Assembly: GCF_013315695.1 (NCBI RefSeq)
Contig: NZ_CP054353.1
Strand: one strand, 5' to 3'
Length of the DNA: 64,000 nucleotides
DNA from: Escherichia coli
GTDB taxonomy: Bacteria > Pseudomonadota > Gammaproteobacteria > Enterobacterales > Enterobacteriaceae
The stretch's first letter is position 1. Each line of letters starts with the position of its first letter. The notes under the pieces are model-generated. The model saw only the letters and a list, made by a program, of their open reading frames with translations, searched no databases and was not told the DNA's origin. Positions 6,788-36,413 of the stretch are shown here, piece after piece. The translations under genes and the position numbers were made by a program.

Positions 6788-7544
6788 AGCCGAACCGGAT
6801 GCCGGAATGCTGGCGGAAAAAGAGTGGCAGGCGGCGGCTCAGGGTAATATTGGACCAGATGTTTCGCTACTGCGAAGTTTACTCGGTGCTGATGAACAGG
6901 CTGCCGCCGCGCTGCTGTTGGCGCAGAGAAAAAACGGTACGTCGATGTCTTTAACCGCGTTGAGCATGGGGGATGAACGGGCGTTGCACTGGCTGCGCTA
7001 TCTCATGGCTCTTGGGTTTGAGGACGCTGTATTGCTGGAGACGGTGGCAGATCTGCGCTTTGCGCCGGAATTTGTCGCTCGCCATATTGCCGAATGGCAG
7101 CGTCAGAATCCGCTGGATCTGATAATTACCGGCTGCCAAAGCAGCGAAGGGCAGAATGGGCAAACGCCATTTTTGCTGGCGGAAATGCTGGGCTGGCCCT
7201 GCTTCACCCTGGTGGAGCGTTTTACTCTCGACGCGCCGTTTATCACCCTTGAACAGCGTACTGAACATGGGCTGCGCTGTTACCGGGTTCGCTTGCCTGC
7301 GGTGATTGCCGTGCGCCAGTGTGGTGAAGTGGCCTTGCCAGTACCGGGAATGCGCCAGCGAATGGCTGCGGGGAAAGCAGAAATTATCCGTAAAACTGTT
7401 GCTGTCGAATTGCCAGCGATGCAGTGTCTGCAACTGGCAAGAGCAGAGCAACGACGCGGAGCGACGCTGATTGATGGGCAAACGGTAGCAGAAAAAGCGC
7501 AAAAGCTATGGCAGAACTATTTACGCCAAAGGATGCAGCCATGA
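6765..7544 (+). CDS. ygcR: Electron-transfer flavoprotein beta subunit-like (FixA-like)
   Basis: ORF MNILLAFKAEPD...; overlaps the ygcS stop and the ygcQ start, consistent with translational coupling. Confidence 0.8.
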   Translation: MNILLAFKAEPDAGMLAEKEWQAAAQGNIGPDVSLLRSLLGADEQAAAALLLAQRKNGTSMSLTALSMGDERALHWLRYLMALGFEDAVLLETVADLRFAPEFVARHIAEWQRQNPLDLIITGCQSSEGQNGQTPFLLAEMLGWPCFTLVERFTLDAPFITLEQRTEHGLRCYRVRLPAVIAVRQCGEVALPVPGMRQRMAAGKAEIIRKTVAVELPAMQCLQLARAEQRRGATLIDGQTVAEKAQKLWQNYLRQRMQP

Positions 7545-8401
7545 ATATCGCAATTGTGACAATAAATCAGGAGAATGCCGCAATAGCGAGCTGGCTGGCA
7601 GAACAGGATTTCAGCGGTTGTACCCTGGCACACTGGCAGATTGAACCTCAGCCCGTAGTGGCGGAACAGGTGCTGGATGCGCTGGTGGAACAGTGGCAGC
7701 GAACGCCAGCGGACGTTGTTCTCTTTCCGCCGGGAACGTTTGGTGATGAACTGTCGACACGGCTGGCCTGGCGTTTACATGGTGCAAGCATCTGCCAGGT
7801 GACTTCGTTAGATATTTCAACCGTAAGCGTGCGCAAATCCCACTGGGGAAATGCGCTAACGGCGACGCTGCAAACAGAAAAACGCCCGCTATGCCTTTCC
7901 CTTGCCCGCCAGGCGGGAGCAGTGAAAAACGCCACATTGCCCTCTGGTATGCAGCAACTGAACATTGTCCCCGGCGCACTTCCCGACTGGCTGGTTAGCA
8001 CAGAGGATCTGAAAAATGTTACCCGTGACCCATTAGCTGAGGCCAGACGGGTGCTGGTGGTGGGGCAGGGCGGAGAGGCAGATAACCAGGAAATCGCTAT
8101 GCTGGCAGAAAAGCTGGGAGCCGAAGTGGGCTACAGTCGGGCGCGAGTAATGAACGGTGGCGTTGATGCCGAAAAAGTGATTGGTATTTCCGGACATCTG
8201 CTGGCACCTGAGGTGTGTATTGTTGTTGGCGCTTCTGGCGCAGCAGCGTTAATGGCGGGCGTATGCAATAGCAAGTTTGTGGTGGCGATTAATCATGACG
8301 CCAGCGCAGCGGTATTTTCACAGGCAGATGTTGGCGTGGTTGATGACTGGAAAGTGGTGCTGGAGGCAATGGTGACAAACATTCACGCAGATTGCCAATA
8401 A
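7541..8401 (+). CDS. ygcQ: Electron-transfer flavoprotein alpha subunit-like (FixB-like)
   Basis: ORF MNIAIVTINQ... with a C-terminal ETF-alpha FAD-binding region (GISGHLLAPEVCIVVGASGA). Confidence 0.8.
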   Translation: MNIAIVTINQENAAIASWLAEQDFSGCTLAHWQIEPQPVVAEQVLDALVEQWQRTPADVVLFPPGTFGDELSTRLAWRLHGASICQVTSLDISTVSVRKSHWGNALTATLQTEKRPLCLSLARQAGAVKNATLPSGMQQLNIVPGALPDWLVSTEDLKNVTRDPLAEARRVLVVGQGGEADNQEIAMLAEKLGAEVGYSRARVMNGGVDAEKVIGISGHLLAPEVCIVVGASGAAALMAGVCNSKFVVAINHDASAAVFSQADVGVVDDWKVVLEAMVTNIHADCQ

Positions 8402-8439
8402 CGTGTTGCTGGATGATCCTGCCTACGGTTCTGGCCTGG

Positions 8440-8490
8440 GGACTTGTAGGCCTGATAAGACGCGTCAAGCGTCGCATCAGGCGCTGAATG
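8440..8490. repeat. REP (repetitive extragenic palindromic) element between convergent ygcQ and ygcP
   Basis: GTAGGCCTGATAAGACGCGTCAAGCGTCGCATCAGGCG is the classic enterobacterial REP palindrome. Confidence 0.6.
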
Positions 8491-8547
8491 TCCGATGTGG
8501 CGTACAGCCTACAAATCACACAAATTCAATTCGTTACGATTATCCCG

Positions 8548-9123
8548 TCAAAGCAATTTTTTCGCTAGCGTCCAGACCCCGGTATTCGTGGTGGAAAGCG
8601 CCACGACACCTGCGTTAATCGCATTACGCGCATCTTCTTCATCGCACACCAGCCCGCCAGCAATCAGCGGTTGGCGGATTTTCTCCGTCACCCAGCCCAG
8701 CACTTTGGGCATACAGCCAGGCAGGATCTCAATACAATCCGGATTCGATTGCGCAACTTGCTTATCAATGTTGTGAAACGAAATCGAATCAACAATAAAC
8801 AGGCGATGAATACAGAAAAAACCTTCCGCTCTTGCTGCTTTCAGCATTGAGGCTTTGGTACTGATAATGCCGTCCGCCTCGGTCACCAGTTTCAGAAACT
8901 GAATCACCACTTCTTTGTTCGATGCGCCTTCCAGCAAATCGACATGAATAAAGGCATATTTCCCGGCACTTTTAATCTTTTTGACGATATGACTGATGGT
9001 GCAGATATTGCCGTACAACACGGAAATAAACTGGCATTCAGAGTCGATTGCCAGTTGCAGGCTGGCATTATCTTTAACGGCAGCAATCACCGGATTCTGG
9101 CGGAGCAGGTGTAAGAGGGGCAT
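8548..9123 (-). CDS. ygcP: GlpP-family (glycerol-3-phosphate-responsive type) transcription antiterminator-like protein
   Basis: 191-aa ORF with the conserved SAGKxxFxHVDL region of the GlpP antiterminator family. Confidence 0.8.
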   Translation of the reverse strand: MPLLHLLRQNPVIAAVKDNASLQLAIDSECQFISVLYGNICTISHIVKKIKSAGKYAFIHVDLLEGASNKEVVIQFLKLVTEADGIISTKASMLKAARAEGFFCIHRLFIVDSISFHNIDKQVAQSNPDCIEILPGCMPKVLGWVTEKIRQPLIAGGLVCDEEDARNAINAGVVALSTTNTGVWTLAKKLL

Positions 9124-9139
9124 AAATTATCCTTATTAT

Positions 9140-9400
9140 TTATCCAAAACGGTAGGTGATGCCGAATCCGGAAGGCGGATAGCGCCACTGTTGTAGTGTT
9201 GATTCGTCGCACAGCAAACGGCAGGTGCCACACTCCAGGCAGCCGCGATAATCAACGCGTAAGTCACCTTCCGGTGTGAGCGAAAAAAGACCAGCCGGAC
9301 AAGCGTTAATCAACCGTTGTACCGTCTGGCGCTCAACGGAGTCAGCCGGAACAATGTGCGGCGCATCGGCAACGCGCCAGAGATTACGGGCTACAGACAT
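9140..9400 (-). CDS. ygcO: Ferredoxin-like protein (FixX-like), 86 aa
   Basis: ORF MSVARNLW... with a CxxCxxC cysteine cluster; overlaps the ygcN 3' end. Confidence 0.75.
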   Translation of the reverse strand: MSVARNLWRVADAPHIVPADSVERQTVQRLINACPAGLFSLTPEGDLRVDYRGCLECGTCRLLCDESTLQQWRYPPSGFGITYRFG

Positions 9401-10662
9401 CGAATACTCCTGACAACATCGCCCGCCAGATGCCACAGGCCGTGACGACGTAAATGACGCCAGAGCAACTGGCGCAGCGGCGGAACAGGTTTATCACCCT
9501 GATCCCATAAATCGCGGGAAATATCCTGCATTAACGCAGGCCACGCACGGTACCATCCAGGGCGTTGCAAAAGCGCCGGAACATGCTGATAACGTTGTAG
9601 AACATCCCATAGCAGGCTGCGCTCGACGTTGTGATGATAAAGCGCAAACAGATTTTGCGGCTCGCGGTGCTGGCAGGCGCTTATCAGCGTTTGTGCCGCC
9701 GCCTGCGCGCCAGTCAGCGCCATATCCATGCCGCGCACGGAAATTCCGGTATTGACGCAACTGCGCAACGCATCGCCCACCAGCAGCCAGCCGTTACCGG
9801 CGTATTGCACCGGCATACTGTGCAAGCCACCTTCTGGCACCAGATGCGCACCATACTCCAGTGATTCCGTGTTTTTGATAAGCGGGCGCACTGCCGGATG
9901 CGTTTTAAAGCGAGCCAGCAGCTCGCTTGCCGGAACACGACTTTGCGTAAGGGAAGAGAGCGGGCAAACAATCCCTAACGAGAGCGTTTGTTGATTAGTA
10001 TAAAGAAATGCGCCGCCGGGTAAGTCATCACAGATCCCGCCGCTGAACAGCAACGCTGCGCCTTCGTTATTCTCCAGATGAAAACGTTCTTCAATAGCGG
10101 ATGTTTCCAGCGACAGCACTTCTTTGATCCCCAACGCCATCGCTTCGCCAGCAGGACGAGTCACTAACCCGTGACGCTCAGCCAGGACGCTGTTGGCACC
10201 TTCTGCCAGCACCACATAACGGGCGCGGAGAATATCGTCACCACAAATGACACCACACACCCTGCCGTTTTCTTCATACAGCGCATCTACCGTCGCACCA
10301 GGGATGCATTCGACACCTTCTTTTTCGGCTTCGGCAACCAGCCACGGATCGAACCGTGCACGTAATACGCTCCAGGATTCACCGCCGGGCTGTAAGCTGG
10401 AAAACGTCGTTGCGCCATCCGGCGTTAGCAGAGAAAGACTTTCGTGAGTGATGCGTCGTTCAAGAGGCGCGGTCAGGTGAAACTGAGGGAGGAGTTCCGC
10501 GAGCGCCTGGGTATATAAACGCCCGCCGGAAAGGTTTTTACTGCCGGGAATTTCAGCGCGTTCCAGTAACAGAACGGATAAACCTGCCCGCGCGCAGCGT
10601 AAAGCACAAGCGGTGCCTGCTATACCGGCACCAATAATAATAATGTCGCAGTCGTCTTCCAT
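9391..10662 (-). CDS. ygcN: FAD-dependent oxidoreductase (FixC-like), 423 aa
   Basis: ORF MEDDCDIIIIGAGIAGTACA... carrying the GxGxxG dinucleotide-binding motif. Confidence 0.8.
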   Translation of the reverse strand: MEDDCDIIIIGAGIAGTACALRCARAGLSVLLLERAEIPGSKNLSGGRLYTQALAELLPQFHLTAPLERRITHESLSLLTPDGATTFSSLQPGGESWSVLRARFDPWLVAEAEKEGVECIPGATVDALYEENGRVCGVICGDDILRARYVVLAEGANSVLAERHGLVTRPAGEAMALGIKEVLSLETSAIEERFHLENNEGAALLFSGGICDDLPGGAFLYTNQQTLSLGIVCPLSSLTQSRVPASELLARFKTHPAVRPLIKNTESLEYGAHLVPEGGLHSMPVQYAGNGWLLVGDALRSCVNTGISVRGMDMALTGAQAAAQTLISACQHREPQNLFALYHHNVERSLLWDVLQRYQHVPALLQRPGWYRAWPALMQDISRDLWDQGDKPVPPLRQLLWRHLRRHGLWHLAGDVVRSIRCL

Positions 10663-10739
10663 GTCATGCCCCAGATATCCAGAGCGCAACACCCTAACAT
10701 AGCGTTACTTAAGGGAAATTGACCGCCGACACACTCTTA

Positions 10740-11105
10740 TCATTCGCCGCGATAGATGCAACCTGCGGTGCAGGTTTCTTTCACCATCACCGCACTTAAC
10801 AGCGGAACAACCGGTTTAACCTGATCCCAAATCCATTTTGCTAAAACCTCGCTGGTCGGGTTTTCCAGGCCAGGAATATCATTGAGATAATAGTGATCGA
10901 GGCGATCATAGGTTGGTTTAAACGCTGCTTTCAGTTCAGCGAAATCGATAATCCAGCCCGTATGCGGATCGACTTCCCCGGTAATTTCCAGTCGCACCAT
11001 AAAGGAATGCCCGTGCAGGCGACCACATTTATGTCCTTCCGGGACGTGTGGTAAGCGGTGAGCGGCTTCGAAGGTGAAATCTTTAAATAACGTGGTGGAC
11101 ATCAT
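10740..11105 (-). CDS. queD: 6-carboxy-5,6,7,8-tetrahydropterin synthase (queuosine biosynthesis)
   Basis: 121-aa [21 protein letters not shown]...CGRLHGHSF..., the PTPS family zinc-binding signature. Confidence 0.85.
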
Positions 11106-11420
11106 AATTTCTCTACAGGACGATAAAACCGCCGTAGAGTACCGGAAAGGCTGTTTTTTCGCATTATCTAAAACGACTTTGTTGCGCAAAATCGCTGATT
11201 TATCTTAATGATTGGCTAAATTCACTTGTTTTTCATTGGGTTGAGTAATCTATTTTGTTGTTAAAGACTATTGCTAAAACAGGTTAGTCGATTTGGTTAT
11301 TAGTTATCGCTATCCCGTCTTTAATCCACACCGTTCACCCCGTTAACCTTACCTTCTCTTCTGTTTTATGGGCGCTGACAGGGCGCAGAAACAGCTTTGC
11401 TTACTGGAACATAACGACGC
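11106..11420. promoter_or_regulatory. Divergent queD / cysJIH promoter region (expected CysB-dependent cysJ promoter)
   Basis: 315-bp AT-rich intergenic region upstream of cysJ; CysB control of cysJIH is established knowledge, but individual sites were not mapped here. Confidence 0.4.
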
Positions 11421-13220
11421 ATGACGACACAGGTCTCACCTTCCGCGTTGCTTCCGTTGAACCCGGAGCAACTGGCACGCCTTCAGGCGGCCACGACCGA
11501 TTTAACTCCCACCCAGCTTGCCTGGGTTTCTGGCTATTTCTGGGGCGTGCTCAACCAGCAGCCTGCTGCGCTTGCAGCGACGCCAGCGCCCGCCGCAGAA
11601 ATGCCGGGTATAACTATTATCTCCGCCTCGCAAACCGGCAATGCGCGCCGGGTTGCTGAAGCATTACGCGATGATTTATTGGCAGCAAAACTGAACGTTA
11701 AGCTGGTGAACGCGGGCGACTATAAATTCAAACAAATCGCCAGCGAAAAACTGCTTATCGTGGTGACGTCAACGCAAGGAGAAGGGGAACCGCCGGAAGA
11801 AGCCGTCGCGCTGCATAAGTTCCTGTTCTCCAAAAAAGCGCCAAAGCTGGAAAACACCGCGTTTGCCGTGTTTAGCCTCGGCGATAGCTCTTATGAATTT
11901 TTCTGCCAGTCCGGGAAAGATTTTGACAGTAAGCTGGCGGAACTGGGCGGTGAACGCCTGCTTGACCGTGTCGATGCCGATGTTGAATATCAGGCCGCTG
12001 CCAGCGAGTGGCGCGCCCGCGTGGTTGATGCGCTTAAATCGCGTGCGCCTGTCGCGGCACCTTCGCAATCCGTCGCTACTGGCGCGGTAAATGAAATCCA
12101 CACCAGCCCGTACAGCAAAGACGCGCCGCTGGTGGCGAGCCTCTCTGTTAACCAGAAAATTACCGGGCGTAACTCTGAAAAAGACGTTCGCCATATCGAA
12201 ATTGACTTAGGTGACTCGGGCCTGCGTTACCAGCCGGGTGACGCGCTGGGTGTCTGGTATCAGAACGATCCGGCACTGGTGAAAGAACTTGTCGAACTGC
12301 TGTGGCTGAAAGGCGATGAACCTGTCACCGTCGAGGGCAAAACGTTGCCTCTGAACGAAGCGCTACAGTGGCACTTCGAACTGACCGTCAACACCGCCAA
12401 CATTGTTGAGAACTATGCCACGCTTACCCGCAGCGAAACGCTGCTGCCGCTGGTGGGCGATAAAGCGAAGTTACAGCATTACGCCGCGACCACGCCGATT
12501 GTCGACATGGTGCGTTTCTCTCCGGCGCAACTGGATGCCGAAGCGCTGATTAATCTGCTGCGCCCGCTGACCCCGCGCCTGTATTCCATCGCCTCCTCGC
12601 AGGCGGAAGTCGAGAACGAAGTACACGTCACCGTTGGCGTGGTGCGTTACGACGTGGAAGGCCGCGCCCGTGCCGGTGGTGCCTCCAGCTTCCTCGCGGA
12701 CCGCGTGGAAGAAGAGGGCGAAGTCCGCGTATTTATCGAACATAACGACAACTTCCGCCTGCCAGCCAACCCAGAAACCCCGGTGATTATGATTGGCCCA
12801 GGCACCGGCATCGCGCCGTTTCGCGCCTTTATGCAGCAGCGCGCCGCTGACGAAGCGCCGGGTAAAAACTGGTTGTTCTTTGGCAACCCGCACTTTACGG
12901 AAGATTTCCTCTACCAGGTGGAGTGGCAGCGCTACGTCAAAGAGGGCGTGCTGACGCGTATCGATCTTGCCTGGTCGCGCGACCAAAAAGAAAAAGTTTA
13001 TGTACAAGACAAACTGCGCGAACAGGGCGCAGAGCTGTGGCGCTGGATCAATGACGGTGCCCACATTTATGTCTGCGGCGACGCTAATCGCATGGCGAAA
13101 GACGTTGAACAGGCACTTCTGGAAGTGATTGCCGAATTTGGTGGCATGGACACCGAAGCGGCGGATGAATTTTTAAGTGAGCTGCGCGTAGAGCGCCGTT
13201 ATCAGCGAGATGTCTACTAA
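11421..13220 (+). CDS. cysJ: Sulfite reductase [NADPH] flavoprotein alpha component
   Basis: 599-aa [21 protein letters not shown]... with flavodoxin and FAD/NADPH-binding domains; operon with cysI and cysH. Confidence 0.95.
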
Positions 13221-14932
13221 TGAGCGAAAAACATCCAGGGCCTTTAGTGGTCGAAGGAAAACTGACAGACGCCGAGCGCATGAAGCTTGAAAGCAACTAC
13301 CTGCGCGGCACCATTGCGGAAGATTTAAACGACGGTCTGACCGGCGGCTTTAAGGGCGACAACTTCCTGCTGATCCGCTTCCACGGCATGTATCAGCAGG
13401 ATGACCGCGACATCCGCGCCGAACGTGCTGAACAGAAGCTGGAGCCGCGCCACGCGATGCTGTTGCGCTGTCGTCTGCCGGGTGGGGTGATTACCACCAA
13501 ACAGTGGCAGGCGATCGATAAATTTGCCGGTGAAAACACCATCTATGGCAGCATTCGCCTGACCAACCGCCAGACGTTTCAGTTCCACGGCATTCTGAAA
13601 AAGAACGTCAAACCGGTGCACCAGATGCTGCACTCGGTCGGTCTTGATGCGCTGGCGACTGCTAACGACATGAACCGTAACGTACTCTGCACCTCGAACC
13701 CTTACGAGTCGCAGCTGCACGCGGAAGCCTATGAATGGGCTAAGAAAATATCTGAACATCTGCTGCCGCGTACCCGCGCGTATGCGGAGATCTGGCTCGA
13801 TCAGGAAAAAGTCGCCACCACCGATGAAGAACCGATCCTCGGTCAGACTTATTTGCCGCGTAAGTTCAAAACCACGGTAGTGATCCCGCCGCAGAACGAT
13901 ATCGATCTGCACGCCAACGACATGAACTTCGTGGCGATCGCCGAAAACGGCAAGCTGGTGGGCTTTAACCTGCTGGTGGGCGGTGGGCTTTCCATCGAGC
14001 ACGGCAACAAGAAAACCTACGCCCGCACGGCGAGTGAGTTTGGTTATCTGCCGCTGGAGCATACGCTGGCGGTGGCAGAAGCCGTCGTGACGACTCAGCG
14101 CGACTGGGGTAACCGAACCGATCGTAAAAATGCCAAAACCAAATACACGCTGGAGCGCGTGGGGGTTGAGACGTTTAAAGCGGAAGTGGAGCGTCGCGCG
14201 GGGATCAAATTTGAACCGATCCGTCCGTATGAGTTCACCGGACGCGGCGATCGTATTGGTTGGGTTAAGGGCATTGATGATAACTGGCACCTGACGCTAT
14301 TTATCGAAAATGGTCGCATCCTTGATTATCCGGGGCGTCCGCTGAAAACTGGCCTGCTGGAGATCGCGAAGATCCACAAAGGTGATTTCCGCATTACGGC
14401 GAACCAGAATCTGATCATCGCCGGTGTGCCGGAAAGCGAGAAAGCGAAGATCGAGAAGATCGCCAAAGAGAGCGGGTTAATGAATGCCGTCACGCCGCAG
14501 CGTGAAAACTCAATGGCCTGCGTGTCATTCCCGACTTGCCCGCTGGCGATGGCGGAAGCGGAGCGTTTCCTGCCGTCTTTTATCGACAACATCGATAATT
14601 TAATGGCGAAACATGGTGTCAGCGATGAGCATATCGTGATGCGTGTAACAGGCTGCCCGAACGGTTGTGGTCGCGCGATGCTGGCGGAAGTGGGCCTGGT
14701 GGGGAAAGCGCCGGGTCGCTACAACCTGCATCTTGGCGGCAACCGCATTGGGACACGTATCCCACGGATGTATAAAGAAAACATCACCGAGCCGGAAATC
14801 CTGGCGTCGCTTGATGAACTGATAGGGCGCTGGGCGAAAGAGCGCGAAGCGGGTGAAGGCTTCGGCGACTTTACGGTGCGTGCGGGCATCATTCGCCCGG
14901 TGCTCGATCCGGCGCGCGATTTGTGGGATTAA
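13220..14932 (+). CDS. cysI: Sulfite reductase hemoprotein beta component
   Basis: 570-aa ORF; start overlaps the cysJ stop; siroheme/4Fe-4S cysteine motifs (CTSNPY..., CPNGC). Confidence 0.95.
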
Positions 14933-14945
14933 CCATCAGCCCGGT

Positions 14946-14984
14946 CTTGTAGGCCTGATAAGACGCGTGAGCGTCGCATCAGGC
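14946..14984. repeat. REP element between cysI and cysH
   Basis: CTTGTAGGCCTGATAAGACGCGTGAGCGTCGCATCAGGC, the same REP family as at 8440-8490. Confidence 0.6.
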
Positions 14985-15005
14985 AAGGCAAACAGTGAGG
15001 AACTT

Positions 15006-15740
15006 ATGTCCAAACTCGATCTAAACGCCCTGAACGAACTGCCAAAGGTAGACCGGATTCTGGCGCTGGCGGAAACTAACGCCCAACTGGAAAAACTGGA
15101 CGCTGAAGGCCGCGTAGCCTGGGCGCTGGATAATCTGCCCGGTGAATATGTACTTTCTTCCAGCTTTGGCATTCAGGCGGCGGTGAGCCTGCATCTGGTG
15201 AATCAGATTCACCCGGATATTCCAGTGATCCTCACCGATACCGGTTATCTGTTCCCGGAAACCTACCGCTTTATTGACGAGTTAACGGACAAACTCAAAC
15301 TCAACCTGAAAGTGTACCGTGCTACCGAAAGCGCTGCCTGGCAGGAAGCGCGCTACGGCAAACTGTGGGAACAGGGCGTTGAAGGTATTGAAAAGTACAA
15401 CGATATCAACAAAGTCGAACCGATGAACCGGGCGCTAAAAGAACTGAACGCGCAAACCTGGTTTGCCGGCCTGCGCCGTGAACAATCCGGCAGTCGTGCC
15501 AATTTACCGGTGCTGGCAATTCAGCGTGGCGTATTTAAAGTGCTGCCGATTATCGACTGGGATAACCGAACTATTTATCAGTACCTGCAAAAACATGGCC
15601 TGAAATATCACCCATTATGGGATGAAGGATATTTATCGGTCGGTGATACCCATACAACCCGTAAATGGGAACCCGGCATGGCGGAAGAAGAAACGCGTTT
15701 CTTTGGCTTAAAAAGAGAATGTGGGTTACACGAAGGGTAA
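15006..15740 (+). CDS. cysH: Phosphoadenosine phosphosulfate (PAPS) reductase
   Basis: 244-aa product [14 protein letters not shown]... ending ...ECGLHEG; the track ORF starting at 14853 is a 5' over-extension through the REP element. Confidence 0.9.
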
Positions 15741-15757
15741 ATATTGCCGGATAAATT

Positions 15758-15796
15758 AAACGCCTCTGTCAGAAATGATGGGGGCGTTTTTATTTT
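15758..15796 (+). terminator. Candidate terminator downstream of cysH
   Basis: AAACGCC...GGCGTTTTTATTTT: short GC stem plus T-run immediately after the cysH stop; the loop is long, so the call is weak. Confidence 0.35.
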
Positions 15797-15906
15797 GCGA
15801 GCAGCATTCCTGATTTTAAACGTGAACGTCGTTGGAAGAATTAACAGGTATAGAATGGCGTTGGGTGCTTGAGGCTGTCTGGCGTTAAGCATTCGCGAGG
15901 TTCCAG

Positions 15907-16008
15907 ATGGACAAAAGCCCCAGGCGATATTTCTATCAACCTGAGGCCAGCGTTCGAACCCAAACAATTCGAATGTTAGTCTCTTCTTTGCAGGGAGGCA
16001 AGACATGC
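15907..16008 (+). CDS. mok-like upstream reading frame, translationally coupled to hok
   Basis: 33-codon ORF ([15 protein letters not shown]...GGKTC) with a GAGG RBS; its TGA stop overlaps the hok ATG (ATGCTGA), the arrangement typical of hok/mok loci. Confidence 0.35.
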
Positions 16009-16157
16009 TGACAAAATATGCCCTTGTGGCAATCATAGTGCTGTGTTTTACAGTACTGGGATTCACGCTGATGGTAGGCGACTCGTTGTGTGAGTTGAGT
16101 ATCAGAGAACGTGGTATGGAGTTTAAGGCGGTTCTCGCTTACGAATCGAAGAAGTAG
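16005..16157 (+). CDS. hokX: Hok/Gef-family type I toxin (50 aa), apparently intact
   Basis: [50 protein letters not shown]: single TM helix followed by the conserved SLCE...AYES motif of Hok/Gef; GGAGG RBS; a GC hairpin (CGCGGGG-GTAAAA-CCCCGCG, 16164-16183) lies just downstream. Symbol by position between cysH and cas3. Confidence 0.7.
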
Positions 16158-16199
16158 CCACCACGCGGGGGTAAAACCCCGCGTACTGAATTGTGATGG

Positions 16200-16351
16200 T
16201 TTGGTCTCCTGCACCCTTTTTTAATTTATATTGTTTATGTGAATATTATGCCTATGTTTATTATTCATATATATTACGGATGAAAATTATTTGATTATTC
16301 ATAATGTAAATATTTTATTGAACGATATATATCACAGATAATTTTTAATAT
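16200..16351 (+). promoter_or_regulatory. AT-rich cas3 upstream/promoter region
   Basis: About 150 bp of very AT-rich DNA immediately upstream of cas3; in K-12 the cas promoters are H-NS silenced (established knowledge, not verified for this sequence). Confidence 0.4.
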
Positions 16352-19051
16352 ATGCGTAAATATCCTTTAAGTTTACTGAAGGATAAAAATATTGTGACTT
16401 TTTTTGATTTCTGGGGAAAAACCCGACGCGGCGAGAAAGACGGGGGCGACGACTATCACCTTCTTTGCTGGCATTCGCTGGATGTAGCCGCGATGGGCTA
16501 TTTAATGGTTAAAAGCAATTGCTTCGGACTGGCTGACTATTTTCGTCAATTAGGTTTCGCTGACACGGAGCTGGCAGCACAATTTTTCGCCTGGCTGCTG
16601 TGCTGGCACGATATTGGAAAATTTGCCCGCTCTTTTCAGCAACTTTACCTGCACCCACAACTCAAGGTTCCGGAAGGCGCAAGAAAGAATTACGAAAAGA
16701 TCTCTCATTCAACGCTGGGCTACTGGTTGTGGAACCATTATTTAAGTGAATGTCAGGAGTTGCTTCCTTCATCTTCACTCTCTCCGCGCAAACTTAAACG
16801 GGTGATGGAGATGTGGATGCCCATGACTACCGGGCATCATGGTCGACCCCCTGAGCGTATGGATGAACTGGATAATTTTCTGCCTGAAGACAAAGGTGCC
16901 GCACGAGATTTTCTCCTTGCAATCAAGGTACTGTTTCCGCTCATAGAGATCCCCACATTCTGGGATGATGACGAGGGCGTTGAACTTATAAAACAACTTT
17001 CCTGGTATATCTCTGCAACCGTCGTACTTGCAGACTGGACGGGATCGTCAACGCGATATTTTCCACGCGTCGCACAGACAATGGATATTGAAGATTACTG
17101 GCAGAAAACTTTAGTTCAGGCTCAAAACGCCTTAACCGTCTTTCCTCCAAAAGCAGAAAGCGCGCCTTTCACCGGAATTAATACGCTGTTTCCTTTTATT
17201 GAGAATCCGACACCGCTACAGCAAAAGGTGCTGGATCTGGATATCAGCCAGCCGGGACCACAGTTATTTATTCTGGAGGATGTAACCGGCGCAGGTAAAA
17301 CAGAAGCGGCGCTTATCCTGGCGCACAGGTTGATGGCTGCGGGGAAAGCGCAGGGTTTGTTTTTTGGCCTGCCAACAATGGCAACGGCCAATGCCATGTA
17401 CGATCGACTGGTCAAAACCTGGCTTGCTTTCTATTCGCCAGAGTCCCGCCCCAGCCTGGTGCTGGCACACAGTGCCCGAACATTAATGGACCGCTTTAAT
17501 GAATCACTCTGGTCCGGTGATTTAGTCGGGTCAGAAGAACCGGATGAACAAACGTTCAGTCAGGGATGTGCGGCCTGGTTTGCCGACAGTAACAAGAAGG
17601 CGCTACTGGCTGAAATTGGCGTCGGCACGCTGGATCAGGCGATGATGGCTGTGATGCCGTTCAAACATAATAATCTGCGGCTTCTGGGACTGAGTAACAA
17701 AATCCTGCTGGCTGATGAGATCCATGCCTGTGACGCTTACATGTCATGCATTCTTGAAGGGCTGATCGAGCGGCAGGCGCGTGGCGGAAACAGCGTCATT
17801 TTGCTTTCTGCCACGTTATCTCAACAGCAGCGCGACAAACTCGTTGCTGCCTTTGCGCGTGGTATAGAGGGCCAGCAAGAAGCTCCGTTCCTGGAAAAGG
17901 ATGATTACCCCTGGCTGACGCACGTTACGAAATCCGATGTGCATTCACACCGGGTAGCGACGCGCAAAGACGTTGAGCGCAGCGTGAGTGTGGGTTGGCT
18001 TCATAGCGAACAAGAGTGTATTGCGCGTATCGAATCGGCGGTAAGTCAGGGGAAATGTATCGCCTGGATCCGAAATTCTGTCGATGACGCCATCCAGGTT
18101 CATCGTCAGTTACTTGCCCGCGGCGTCATTCCTGCTTCCAGCCTTTCACTTTTTCATAGCCGCTTTGCTTTTAGCGATCGCCAGCGAATTGAAACGGAGA
18201 CGCTGGCACGCTTTGGTAAAGAAGACTGTTCACAGCGTGCCGGAAAAGTCCTCATTTGTACTCAAGTCCTGGAGCAGAGCGTTGACTGCGACCTGGACGA
18301 AATGATTTCCGACCTTGCCCCTGTTGATTTACTGATCCAGCGAGCAGGGCGATTACAGCGACATATCCGCGATATGAATGGCCAGTTAAAGCGTGACGGT
18401 AAAGACGAGCGTCACCCTCCTGAATTGCTGATTCTGGCCCCCGTCTGGGACGACTCTCCGGGTGACGAATGGTTTGGCAGTGCCATGCGTAACAGTGCAT
18501 TTGTCTATCCCGATCATGGGCGAATCTGGCTGACGCAGCGTGTGCTGCGTGAGCAAGGTGCTATTCAGATGCCACACTCAGCCCGGCTTCTGATTGAATC
18601 AGTCTACGGTGAGGACGTAGTAATGCCGGAAGGGTTTGCCCGCAGCGAGCAGGAGCAAGTGGGCAAATATTACTGCGATCGCGCAATGGCTAAAAAGTTT
18701 GTACTGAACTTCAGGCCCGGCTATGCCGCCAATATCAACGATTACCTCCCGGAAAAACTGTCGACACGTCTGGCTGAAGAGTCTGTTTCCCTGTGGCTGG
18801 CTACCTGTATTGACGGTGTGGTGAAGCCTTATGCCACAGGTGCACACGCATGGGAAATGAGCGTTGTCAGAGTGCGCCGAAGCTGGTGGAAAAAACATCG
18901 GGATGAGTTTGCTTTACTGGAAGGGGATGCGTTCAGGCAGTGGTGCGTTGAACAGCGGCATGATCCGGAGATGGCAAACGTGATTTTAGTCACCGATGAC
19001 GAAAGTTGTGGGTATTCGGCTACGGAGGGATTGATTGGCAAGGTTGGTTGA
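16352..19051 (+). CDS. cas3: Type I-E Cas3 HD-nuclease/helicase
   Basis: 899-aa ORF with an N-terminal HD region (HSLDVAA...HDIGKF), Walker A GAGKTEAA and DExH box LLADEIHACD; start could instead be the GTG 14 codons downstream. Confidence 0.9.
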   Translation: MRKYPLSLLKDKNIVTFFDFWGKTRRGEKDGGDDYHLLCWHSLDVAAMGYLMVKSNCFGLADYFRQLGFADTELAAQFFAWLLCWHDIGKFARSFQQLYLHPQLKVPEGARKNYEKISHSTLGYWLWNHYLSECQELLPSSSLSPRKLKRVMEMWMPMTTGHHGRPPERMDELDNFLPEDKGAARDFLLAIKVLFPLIEIPTFWDDDEGVELIKQLSWYISATVVLADWTGSSTRYFPRVAQTMDIEDYWQKTLVQAQNALTVFPPKAESAPFTGINTLFPFIENPTPLQQKVLDLDISQPGPQLFILEDVTGAGKTEAALILAHRLMAAGKAQGLFFGLPTMATANAMYDRLVKTWLAFYSPESRPSLVLAHSARTLMDRFNESLWSGDLVGSEEPDEQTFSQGCAAWFADSNKKALLAEIGVGTLDQAMMAVMPFKHNNLRLLGLSNKILLADEIHACDAYMSCILEGLIERQARGGNSVILLSATLSQQQRDKLVAAFARGIEGQQEAPFLEKDDYPWLTHVTKSDVHSHRVATRKDVERSVSVGWLHSEQECIARIESAVSQGKCIAWIRNSVDDAIQVHRQLLARGVIPASSLSLFHSRFAFSDRQRIETETLARFGKEDCSQRAGKVLICTQVLEQSVDCDLDEMISDLAPVDLLIQRAGRLQRHIRDMNGQLKRDGKDERHPPELLILAPVWDDSPGDEWFGSAMRNSAFVYPDHGRIWLTQRVLREQGAIQMPHSARLLIESVYGEDVVMPEGFARSEQEQVGKYYCDRAMAKKFVLNFRPGYAANINDYLPEKLSTRLAEESVSLWLATCIDGVVKPYATGAHAWEMSVVRVRRSWWKKHRDEFALLEGDAFRQWCVEQRHDPEMANVILVTDDESCGYSATEGLIGKVG

Positions 19052-25001: not shown

Positions 25002-25213
25002 GTGTTCCCCGCGCCAGCGGGGATAAACCGGCTGGGTACTAGCCAGGGTGAAAGGAAGTCACGTGTTCCCCGCGCCAGCGGGGATAAACCGTCGACAATG
25101 GATAAGTTGACTTCAGGTCTGGGGAGTTCCCCGCGCTAGCGGGAATAAACCGTGCAGTACGCCTGATGACAAACCAGGCATCGGGAGTTCCCCCGCGTCA
25201 GCGGGGAACTCCC
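25002..25213 (+). CRISPR. Type I-E CRISPR array: 4 repeats (29 bp) and 3 spacers (32 bp)
   Basis: Repeats at 25002, 25063, 25124 and 25185 (61-bp period): GTGTTCCCCGCGCCAGCGGGGATAAACCG twice, then GAGTTCCCCGCGCTAGCGGGAATAAACCG, then a degenerate terminal repeat GAGTTCCCCCGCGTCAGCGGGGAACTCCC. Spacers: gctgggtactagccagggtgaaaggaagtcac; tcgacaatggataagttgacttcaggtctggg; tgcagtacgcctgatgacaaaccaggcatcgg. Confidence 0.9.
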
Positions 25214-35238: not shown

Positions 35239-35300
35239 ATCGGCGGAACCAGGCTTTTGCTTGAATGTTCCGTCAAGGGATCACGGGTAGGAGCCACCTT

Positions 35301-36293
35301 ATGAGTCAGAATACGCTGAAAGTTCATGATTTAAATGAAGATGCGGAATTTGATGAGAACGGAGTTGAGGTTTTTGACGAAAAGGCCTTAGTAGAAGAGG
35401 AACCCAGTGATAACGATTTGGCCGAAGAGGAACTGTTATCGCAGGGAGCCACACAGCGTGTGCTGGACGCGACTCAGCTTTACCTTGGTGAGATTGGTTA
35501 TTCACCACTGTTAACGGCCGAAGAAGAAGTTTATTTTGCGCGTCGCGCACTGCGTGGAGATGTTGCCTCTCGCCGCCGGATGATCGAGAGTAACTTGCGT
35601 CTGGTGGTAAAAATTGCCCGCCGTTATGGCAATCGTGGTCTGGCGTTGCTGGATCTTATCGAAGAGGGCAACCTGGGGCTGATCCGCGCGGTAGAGAAGT
35701 TTGACCCGGAACGTGGTTTCCGCTTCTCAACATACGCAACCTGGTGGATTCGCCAGACGATCGAACGGGCGATTATGAACCAAACCCGTACTATTCGTTT
35801 GCCGATTCACATCGTAAAGGAGCTGAACGTTTACCTGCGAACCGCACGCGAGTTGTCCCATAAACTGGACCATGAACCAAGTGCGGAAGAGATCGCAGAG
35901 CAACTGGATAAGCCAGTTGATGACGTCAGCCGTATGCTTCGTCTTAACGAGCGCATTACCTCGGTAGACACCCCGCTGGGTGGTGATTCCGAAAAAGCGT
36001 TGCTGGACATCCTGGCCGATGAAAAAGAGAACGGTCCGGAAGATACCACGCAAGATGACGATATGAAGCAGAGCATCGTCAAATGGCTGTTCGAGCTGAA
36101 CGCCAAACAGCGTGAAGTGCTGGCACGTCGATTCGGTTTGCTGGGGTACGAAGCGGCAACACTGGAAGATGTAGGTCGTGAAATTGGCCTCACCCGTGAA
36201 CGTGTTCGCCAGATTCAGGTTGAAGGCCTGCGCCGTTTGCGCGAAATCCTGCAAACGCAGGGGCTGAATATCGAAGCGCTGTTCCGCGAGTAA
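35301..36293 (+). CDS. rpoS: RNA polymerase sigma factor RpoS (sigma-S/sigma-38)
   Basis: 330 aa starting [21 protein letters not shown]...; sigma-70 family regions 2-4; the track ORF from 35265 is over-extended. Confidence 0.95.
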
Positions 36294-36310
36294 GTAAGCA
36301 TCTGTCATAA

Positions 36311-36345
36311 AGGCCAGTCTCTTATGAGGCTGGCCTTTTTCTTTT
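36311..36345. terminator. rpoS intrinsic terminator (possibly bidirectional)
   Basis: AGGCCAGTCT-CTTATG-AGGCTGGCCT hairpin followed by TTTTTCTTTT. Confidence 0.6.
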
Positions 36346-36413
36346 GTATGGGGAGTTGGTGTGTTTCGTCGCCTGGATAAGACACGTCAGCGTCCCATCC
36401 GGCAATCAACATC

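Follow-up and report, generated by a model that had tools for sequence, protein, structure and literature searches.

Does a palindromic repeat that lies inside an operon set the expression of one of its genes against that of the others? This question is raised by the cysJIH operon in a stretch of 64,000 nucleotides (nt) of Escherichia coli DNA (contig NZ_CP054353.1), termed the window, which carries two palindromes of the repetitive extragenic palindromic (REP) kind, one between the convergent genes ygcQ and ygcP (site 1) and one between cysI and cysH (site 2). Our analysis leaves little doubt that both palindromes are ordinary E. coli copies of the REP, or palindromic unit, in their usual contexts, and that any bias of cysJI over cysH is probably smaller than two-fold. 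The original prediction for this DNA had proposed near-identical REP units at the two junctions, one of them convergent and the other operon-internal. Both units were borne out, with their limits tightened to 8446-8482 and 14949-14984, and the contexts as well as the proposed gene names ygcQ, ygcP, cysI and cysH all match the annotation.

Two REP units that differ only in their loops

At both sites the tetranucleotide GTAG directly abuts a stem composed of a 7-bp outer part (GCCTGAT paired with ATCAGGC), a 2-nt mismatch in which AA lies opposite GC, forming a 2x2 internal loop, and a 5-bp inner part (GACGC paired with GCGTC). Aligned with each other, the two copies are identical in all of these elements and vary in the loop alone, which reads GTCAA at site 1 and GTGA at site 2, resulting in stem-loops of 32-33 nt, or 36-37 nt with GTAG included. 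Each GTAG has a CT dinucleotide on its 5' side (8443-8444 at site 1 and 14946-14947 at site 2). The full 33-nt pattern did not occur in any of 100 dinucleotide shuffles of the window. Folded as RNA, both sites reached energies between -21.9 and -22.3 kcal/mol (z-scores between -4.6 and -5.5 against shuffles); the site 1 fold was strong on either strand (-22.0 and -22.3 kcal/mol), and site 2 yielded -21.9 kcal/mol with a z-score of -5.05. As single-stranded DNA the two units folded with -12.8 and -12.9 kcal/mol, corresponding to z-scores of -4.3 and -5.6.

By definition, an E. coli REP is an imperfect palindrome 30-40 nt long whose foot is directly preceded on its 5' side by GTAG and whose stem contains a two-base mismatch, the latter being needed for binding of TnpA-REP. 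Such units fall into the types y, z1 and z2, with ~600 extragenic copies in all (PMC3333891, PMC8266576). The two palindromes agree with this definition in length, hairpin formation, GTAG and mismatch, and both lie between annotated coding sequences. Moreover, a 50-nt query matched a median of at least 40 places per E. coli genome, the value being a lower bound in 5109 records, so that absence of the sequence from the rest of the genome, which would speak against REP identity, is excluded. The type I site TGCC/TGAT is specific to z1 and z2 units (PMC3333891). On the reverse complement, TGCCTGATGCG at site 2 and CGCCTGATGCG at site 1 fit this site. Judged by the consensus, in which a long inner stem marks z2, both units may be z2 rather than z1, and we refer to them as z2-like.

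Single REPs without a partner are a minority form (84/584; PMC3333891). Site 2 is such a single REP and, lacking an inverted partner, was rejected as a member of a bacterial interspersed mosaic element (BIME); site 1 consists of one copy with a truncated, non-folding partner, and neither site thus shows the tandem pairs of z2 and y units that make up BIME-2. No U-tract is present 3' of either hairpin, the following sequence being AAGGCAAAC at site 2 and GCUGAAUG and CUACAAGUCC on the plus and minus strands of site 1, respectively, and neither hairpin was reported by a terminator scan of 8000-16500. Because the U-tract is lacking, the REP hairpins are not intrinsic terminators.

A motif scan of the 64-kb window detected no other canonical GTAG-REP, and further REP-like sequence is limited to the truncated inverted REP next to site 1 (Table 1) and a decayed one at 36370-36404. 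The latter, CGCCTGGATAAGACACGTCAGCGTCCCATCCGGC at 36370-36403, has no GTAG, folds poorly and follows a terminator-like hairpin with a T-run (region 36310-36404) that stands after an open reading frame at 35265-36293. An Rfam scan of the whole window yielded no RNA family at site 1 or site 2.

Both elements are already known, as a textbook repeat at annotated positions in standard contexts. According to a 2026 preprint, tandem genes flank ~40% of REPs and convergent genes ~60%, with 207 of 704 convergent pairs containing a REP and 146 REP-containing tandem pairs; based on these proportions, both contexts found here are the norm. At the DNA level, the two units may be regarded as non-autonomous repeats whose GTAG foot and bulged hairpin would constitute the structure recognized by TnpA-REP (RAYT), and such repeats would persist where they do little harm, as at convergent gene ends and between neighbouring genes of the same direction. 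Once transcribed, a hairpin of about -22 kcal/mol could block 3'-to-5' exonucleases and, with the help of Rho, could mildly attenuate read-through.

Table 1 Coordinates in the window of the two REP units, their parts and the flanking features.
Feature	Position	Strand	Basis or remark
ygcQ	7541-8401	+	annotation
Site 1 REP (z-type, z2-like)	8446-8482	+	between convergent ygcQ and ygcP
Site 1, GTAG	8446-8449	+	
Site 1, outer stem	8450-8456/8476-8482	+	
Site 1, AA/GC mismatch	8457-8458/8474-8475	+	
Site 1, inner stem	8459-8463/8469-8473	+	
Site 1, loop GTCAA	8464-8468	+	
Linker GCTGAAT	8483-8489	+	joins REP to inverted remnant
Truncated inverted REP remnant, GTCCGATGTGGCGT..AGCCTAC	8490-8512	+	CTAC at 8509-8512
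ygcP	8548-9123	-	annotation
cysI	13220-14932	+	annotation; cysJ also annotated
Modest hairpin in the 3' end of cysI	14883-14907	+	fold and coordinate mapping; Term-seq 3' end at 14910, 3 nt on
Site 2 REP (z-type, z2-like), single unit	14949-14984	+	in cysI-cysH spacer
Site 2, GTAG	14949-14952	+	
Site 2, stem-loop with loop GTGA	14953-14984	+	
cysH Shine-Dalgarno sequence GAGGA	14997-15001	+	sequence, annotation
cysH start codon	15006-15008	+	sequence, annotation
cysH	15006-15740	+	annotation
Intrinsic-terminator-like hairpin with T-run	15758-15799	+	terminator scan; 14 pairs, tail TTATTTTGCG

The convergent ygcQ/ygcP junction

The spacer between ygcQ and ygcP comprises 146 nt, with 48 nt between the ygcQ stop codon and the REP stem. 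The REP is the only strong structure of this spacer on either strand, and the terminator scan detected no terminator-like site within it. The inverted remnant that follows the REP yielded a DNA fold no better than shuffles; judged by the consensus, it would be of the y type. In K-12, the same junction carries REP201, listed with the class 'Convergent' at 2894809-2894875 between ygcP and ygcQ in the supplement of the 2026 preprint. Its 67 bp map to 8445-8511 of the window and hence cover the REP, the 7-nt linker and the truncated inverted REP. Locus and orientation are the same and the sequence is nearly so, the window, which derives from a clinical strain, showing a few base changes within the inverted remnant.

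Of 5426 complete E. coli genomes, 4812 have an intact ygcQ/ygcP junction and 614 do not. In strain MLI109, an IS3-family element (L003 4568-5998; RefSeq name IS1397) interrupts the site 1 REP precisely at its loop, with duplication of TCAA, and the junction between REP and IS1397 was matched at ≥99% in 284 E. coli records. IS1397 is known to target the loops of palindromic units (Clement et al. 1999, as cited in PMC3333891), and the same loop specificity is observed at the ygcQ/ygcP REP, the window's own copy being uninterrupted. The insertion therefore provides an independent mark of a bona fide REP. By analogy with other convergent REPs, the site 1 REP, which folds equally well on both strands, would most likely serve as a protective 3' hairpin for both the ygcQ and the ygcP mRNA.

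The cysI-cysH spacer in E. coli and related species

At the second junction, a spacer of 73 nt separates the two genes and the REP is transcribed within the cysJIH mRNA. The cysI stop codon is followed by GTAG after 16 nt and by the stem after 20 nt, and 21 nt lie between the end of the REP and the cysH ATG, a stretch (AAGGCAAACAGTGAGGAACTT) that is conserved with Citrobacter, Salmonella and Kluyvera. As the REP holds cysI and cysH 73 nt apart, cysH would be expected to start from its own Shine-Dalgarno sequence rather than at a tightly coupled junction. No promoter-like site was detected upstream of cysH in the scan of 8000-16500, which was empty at the junction also for terminators, so that an internal promoter and an intrinsic terminator at this position were both rejected. 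In the minimum-free-energy fold, the Shine-Dalgarno sequence of cysH pairs with the first bases behind the cysI stop codon; we dropped this pairing because its upstream partner lacks conservation in the spacers of other species. The terminator-like hairpin behind cysH is likely the true end of the cysJIH transcript.

The REP at this position is a nearly constant feature of E. coli. Over 7.8 kb the window shares 100% identity with strain MSB1_4I, the value for most other strains being 97-98%, and its orientation is opposite to that of K-12. The cysI-cysH junction together with its REP was found in 5419 of 5426 complete E. coli genomes (≥95% identity). The K-12 copy occupies the same locus in the same orientation and differs from the window copy by one extra A in its 5' arm; since REP199 lies at 2866 kb and REP201 at 2894.8 kb, its number is probably REP200. 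Nearly all E. coli carry one REP in this spacer. Two are present in Escherichia sp. MOD1-EC7003 and in strain N96, where the spacer extends to 136 nt and comprises a z-type REP and an inverted y-type REP (L004 4074-4209), and three in E. coli SCPM-O-B-8794 and E. albertii, while the spacer of E. whittamii measures 154 nt.

To place this slot in a wider context, we collected 91 loci (L005-L095) from species-representative genomes with one degenerate DNA pattern for the CysI carboxy-terminus, in 85 of which the cysI stop and the cysH start could be placed by tblastn with a cysH query. Within this set of Enterobacteriaceae and relatives the spacer ranged from 12 to 234 nt. Fourteen of the 85 loci, including those of Enterobacter cloacae, Leclercia, Lelliottia, Pluralibacter, Trabulsiella, Huaxiibacter and a Serratia, have a spacer of 12-16 nt with little beyond the Shine-Dalgarno sequence and no hairpin, as illustrated by the 15-nt spacer of Enterobacter cloacae (CCACGAGAGGTAATT). 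These species indicate that a cysJIH operon can work without the REP. GTAG-tagged REP hairpins are present in 45 of the 85, mostly as an inverted pair of ~100 nt, and the remaining 26 hold other content; most spacers beyond the 14 short ones contain one to three genus-specific REPs. An unrelated G+C-rich palindromic repeat (CCCTCTCCC..GGGAGAGGG..GGGTGAGGGG) occupies the slot in Pseudocitrobacter, one Escherichia species (L077), Kluyvera and some Enterobacter; repeats of the CCCTCTCCC type were listed for loci L016, L077, L024, L060, L061, L064, L022, L079, L082, L088 and L044. The CCCTCTCCC..GGGAGAGGG repeat resembles the so-called boxC.

A stricter test identified 39 species with a GTAG-REP whose end lies 20-23 nt ahead of the cysH ATG. 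The type depends on the genus: Escherichia has a z2-like hairpin of 32 nt, Citrobacter, Salmonella and Kluyvera have one of 26 nt (GCCTGATAAGCGnAGCGCCATCAGGC), and Klebsiella, Enterobacter and Raoultella have GCCGGGCAAACGCAGTGCCGCCCGGC. In this comparison, positions 4, 6 and 7 of the outer stem vary on both arms with pairing kept. These paired changes reflect genus-wide REP families and are therefore not evidence of selection at cysI-cysH. The slot has accommodated palindromic repeats over a long time or on repeated occasions.

Beyond cysH, a toxin-antitoxin locus of the hok/sok type precedes cas3 (16352-19051), with an Rfam match to sok at 15863-16020 on the plus strand (111 bits, the only Rfam match in the window) and a Hok/Gef coding sequence annotated at ~16005-16157. 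The cas genes are followed by a minimal type I-E CRISPR array at 25004-25150 on the minus strand, comprising two spacers and three repeats, of which two are exact and the third has 2 mismatches.

Expression of cysH relative to cysJI

The malE-malF element, which is likewise a REP hairpin between two cistrons of an operon and transcribed alike, and REP325, which likewise lies in a tandem pair (yjdM-yjdN), are characterized counterparts of the cysI-cysH REP. The malE-malF element contains inverted REPs and REP325 is a multi-unit array, whereas cysI-cysH holds a single REP. For malEFG, half-lives of 3.5 versus 1 min and a hairpin-defined 3' end are reported (PMC5927463), whereas cysJIH is not called as differentially decaying and its 3' end lies off the REP. 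REP325 stabilizes the upstream gene and attenuates read-through, the proposed roles being an exonuclease block and a partial Rho-dependent attenuation, as described in the preprint of Harris et al. (2026), where it gives rise to a ladder of truncated transcripts; the cysI-cysH REP in contrast consists of one unit located 21 nt from a translated gene.

The original prediction held that the REP could modulate the stability of cysH mRNA relative to cysJI. In its malE-malF form, in which exonucleases stop at the REP after cuts in cysH so that cysJI outlives cysH and CysJI is made in excess, we consider this rather unlikely. What stands of the proposal is its plausibility: it is the textbook, classical role of REPs (Newbury et al. 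1987, as cited in PMC6061677), the hairpin is stable and has the right place and orientation on the cysJIH mRNA, and REP-containing tandem pairs are reported in the 2026 preprint to show a median log upstream/downstream ratio of 0.96 compared with -0.09 for controls. A strong effect, on the other hand, does not emerge from the published data. Dar and Sorek (2018) analyzed 390 operons for differential decay, cysH-cysI-cysJ being one of them (table S2, PMC5927463), yet it is absent from the 47 whose stability and abundance differed at least 2-fold in the one strain and one condition covered (table S3, PMC5927463). The Term-seq evidence that the prediction had called for is contained in the curated lists of Adams et al. 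(2021). These record no 3' end at the foot of the REP, but they do so next to REP-like hairpins at other loci, e.g. after gpp. In M63 glucose, a single 3' end is listed near the junction, at K-12 position 2888409 on the minus strand, mapping to 14910 in the window and thus to the interior of cysI, 43 nt upstream of the REP stem. A modest hairpin precedes this end (Table 1), which we rejected as an element since its fold energy was no better than that of shuffles; an RNase E cut in the A/U-rich stretch after 14910 is one possibility for its source. In addition, the stability of the cysJIH mRNA is unchanged when the RhlB-PNPase interaction is weakened, upstream genes adjacent to REPs do not have longer half-lives genome-wide according to the legend of Figure 4 (panel G) of the 2026 preprint, and 14 species have no hairpin at all at this junction.

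Partial attenuation as for REP325 in yjdMN, with polymerase pausing at the hairpin and Rho releasing some of the transcripts so that cysH is lowered relative to cysJI, appears unlikely to us. REP325 was shown to act in a partly Rho-dependent manner (Harris et al. 2026 preprint) and BIME-associated attenuation has been reported (Espeli et al. 2001, as cited in PMC6061677), but cysJIH passed the prefilter of the 390-operon set, which removed operons with internal promoters, intrinsic terminators or substantial Rho-dependent termination between genes (PMC5927463). The Rho-termination table of Adams et al., which covers LB only, where the operon is weakly expressed, has no row for cysI or cysH, and the 21 nt between hairpin and cysH would leave little naked RNA for the loading of Rho. 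Action on the downstream gene, where a cut before the REP would place the hairpin near the 5' end of a cysH fragment as a shield against RNase E, or where the REP would insulate cysH initiation, is more doubtful still. It is consistent with the sole mapped 3' end lying upstream of the REP and with the A/U-rich single-stranded stretch in between, which contains GA/UUU and fits the RNase E motif RN/WUU (PMC5927463), and structured 5' ends made by RNase E stabilize downstream segments in other operons (PMC5927463). It may also draw on the placement of the hairpin 20-23 nt before the ATG in 39 species and on the paired substitutions in its stem; one old insertion in front of a conserved Shine-Dalgarno region accounts for the fixed spacing just as well, and the substitutions represent genus-wide REP types. 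Furthermore, cysH is absent from the RNase E sites of table S7, and no differential decay of cysJIH was called in one direction or the other (PMC5927463). The same spacing, paired stem changes and upstream 3' end underlie a broader version, which we regard as quite improbable, namely that the slot is an old, selectively kept feature acting on cysH and not on cysJI, in which the REP would cap a separate cysH mRNA or insulate its initiation and the slot would be refilled, genus by genus, by the resident REP type. We assign the lowest probability to a pure DNA-level role as a gyrase or IHF binding site or a nucleoid-organizing site devoid of any function in RNA. BIME-2 arrays are gyrase targets and the linkers of BIME-1 bind IHF (summarized in PMC3333891), but with a single unit at site 2 and a truncated, non-folding partner at site 1 neither locus has the architecture of BIME-1 or BIME-2, and the preprint of Harris et al. 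(2026) reports neither REP-REP chromosomal contacts nor nucleoid compaction by a model REP.

A full-text literature search for work pairing cysH with 'repetitive extragenic palindromic' returned nothing relevant. REPs reportedly down-regulate translation when they start within ~15 nt of the upstream stop codon, an effect attributed to work of Liang, Rudd and Deutscher from 2015. Both cysI (16 nt to GTAG) and ygcQ (48 nt to the stem) exceed this distance; a weaker extended stem of site 2 could begin 11 nt past the cysI stop codon, as judged from the RNA fold.

Several points weigh against our preferred reading of two ordinary REPs with little effect on their neighbours. The RNA-level roles suggested for the two copies derive from other REPs, and REP tandem pairs are on average biased towards the upstream gene, albeit with wide scatter in the 2026 preprint. 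The constant distance between REP and ATG in 39 species could mean selection for a stronger local function. At site 1, REP201 is by coordinate not among the bidirectional terminators determined by SEnd-seq, as listed in the supplement of the 2026 preprint, and the same supplement places a NusG-dependent region of Rho termination within ygcQ, at a distance of 85 nt ahead of the REP; for these two reasons the REP counts as no more than a candidate 3' end of ygcQ. On balance, a strong effect of the REP on cysH relative to cysJI is unsupported by the available data, and any bias is probably below two-fold, though an effect may also arise under particular conditions.

The comparison of the cysI-cysH slot across species is of modest interest for the study of how REPs spread and persist. 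The cysJIH operon provides a worked example that a REP located inside an operon does not alone imply differential expression of the genes on either side.

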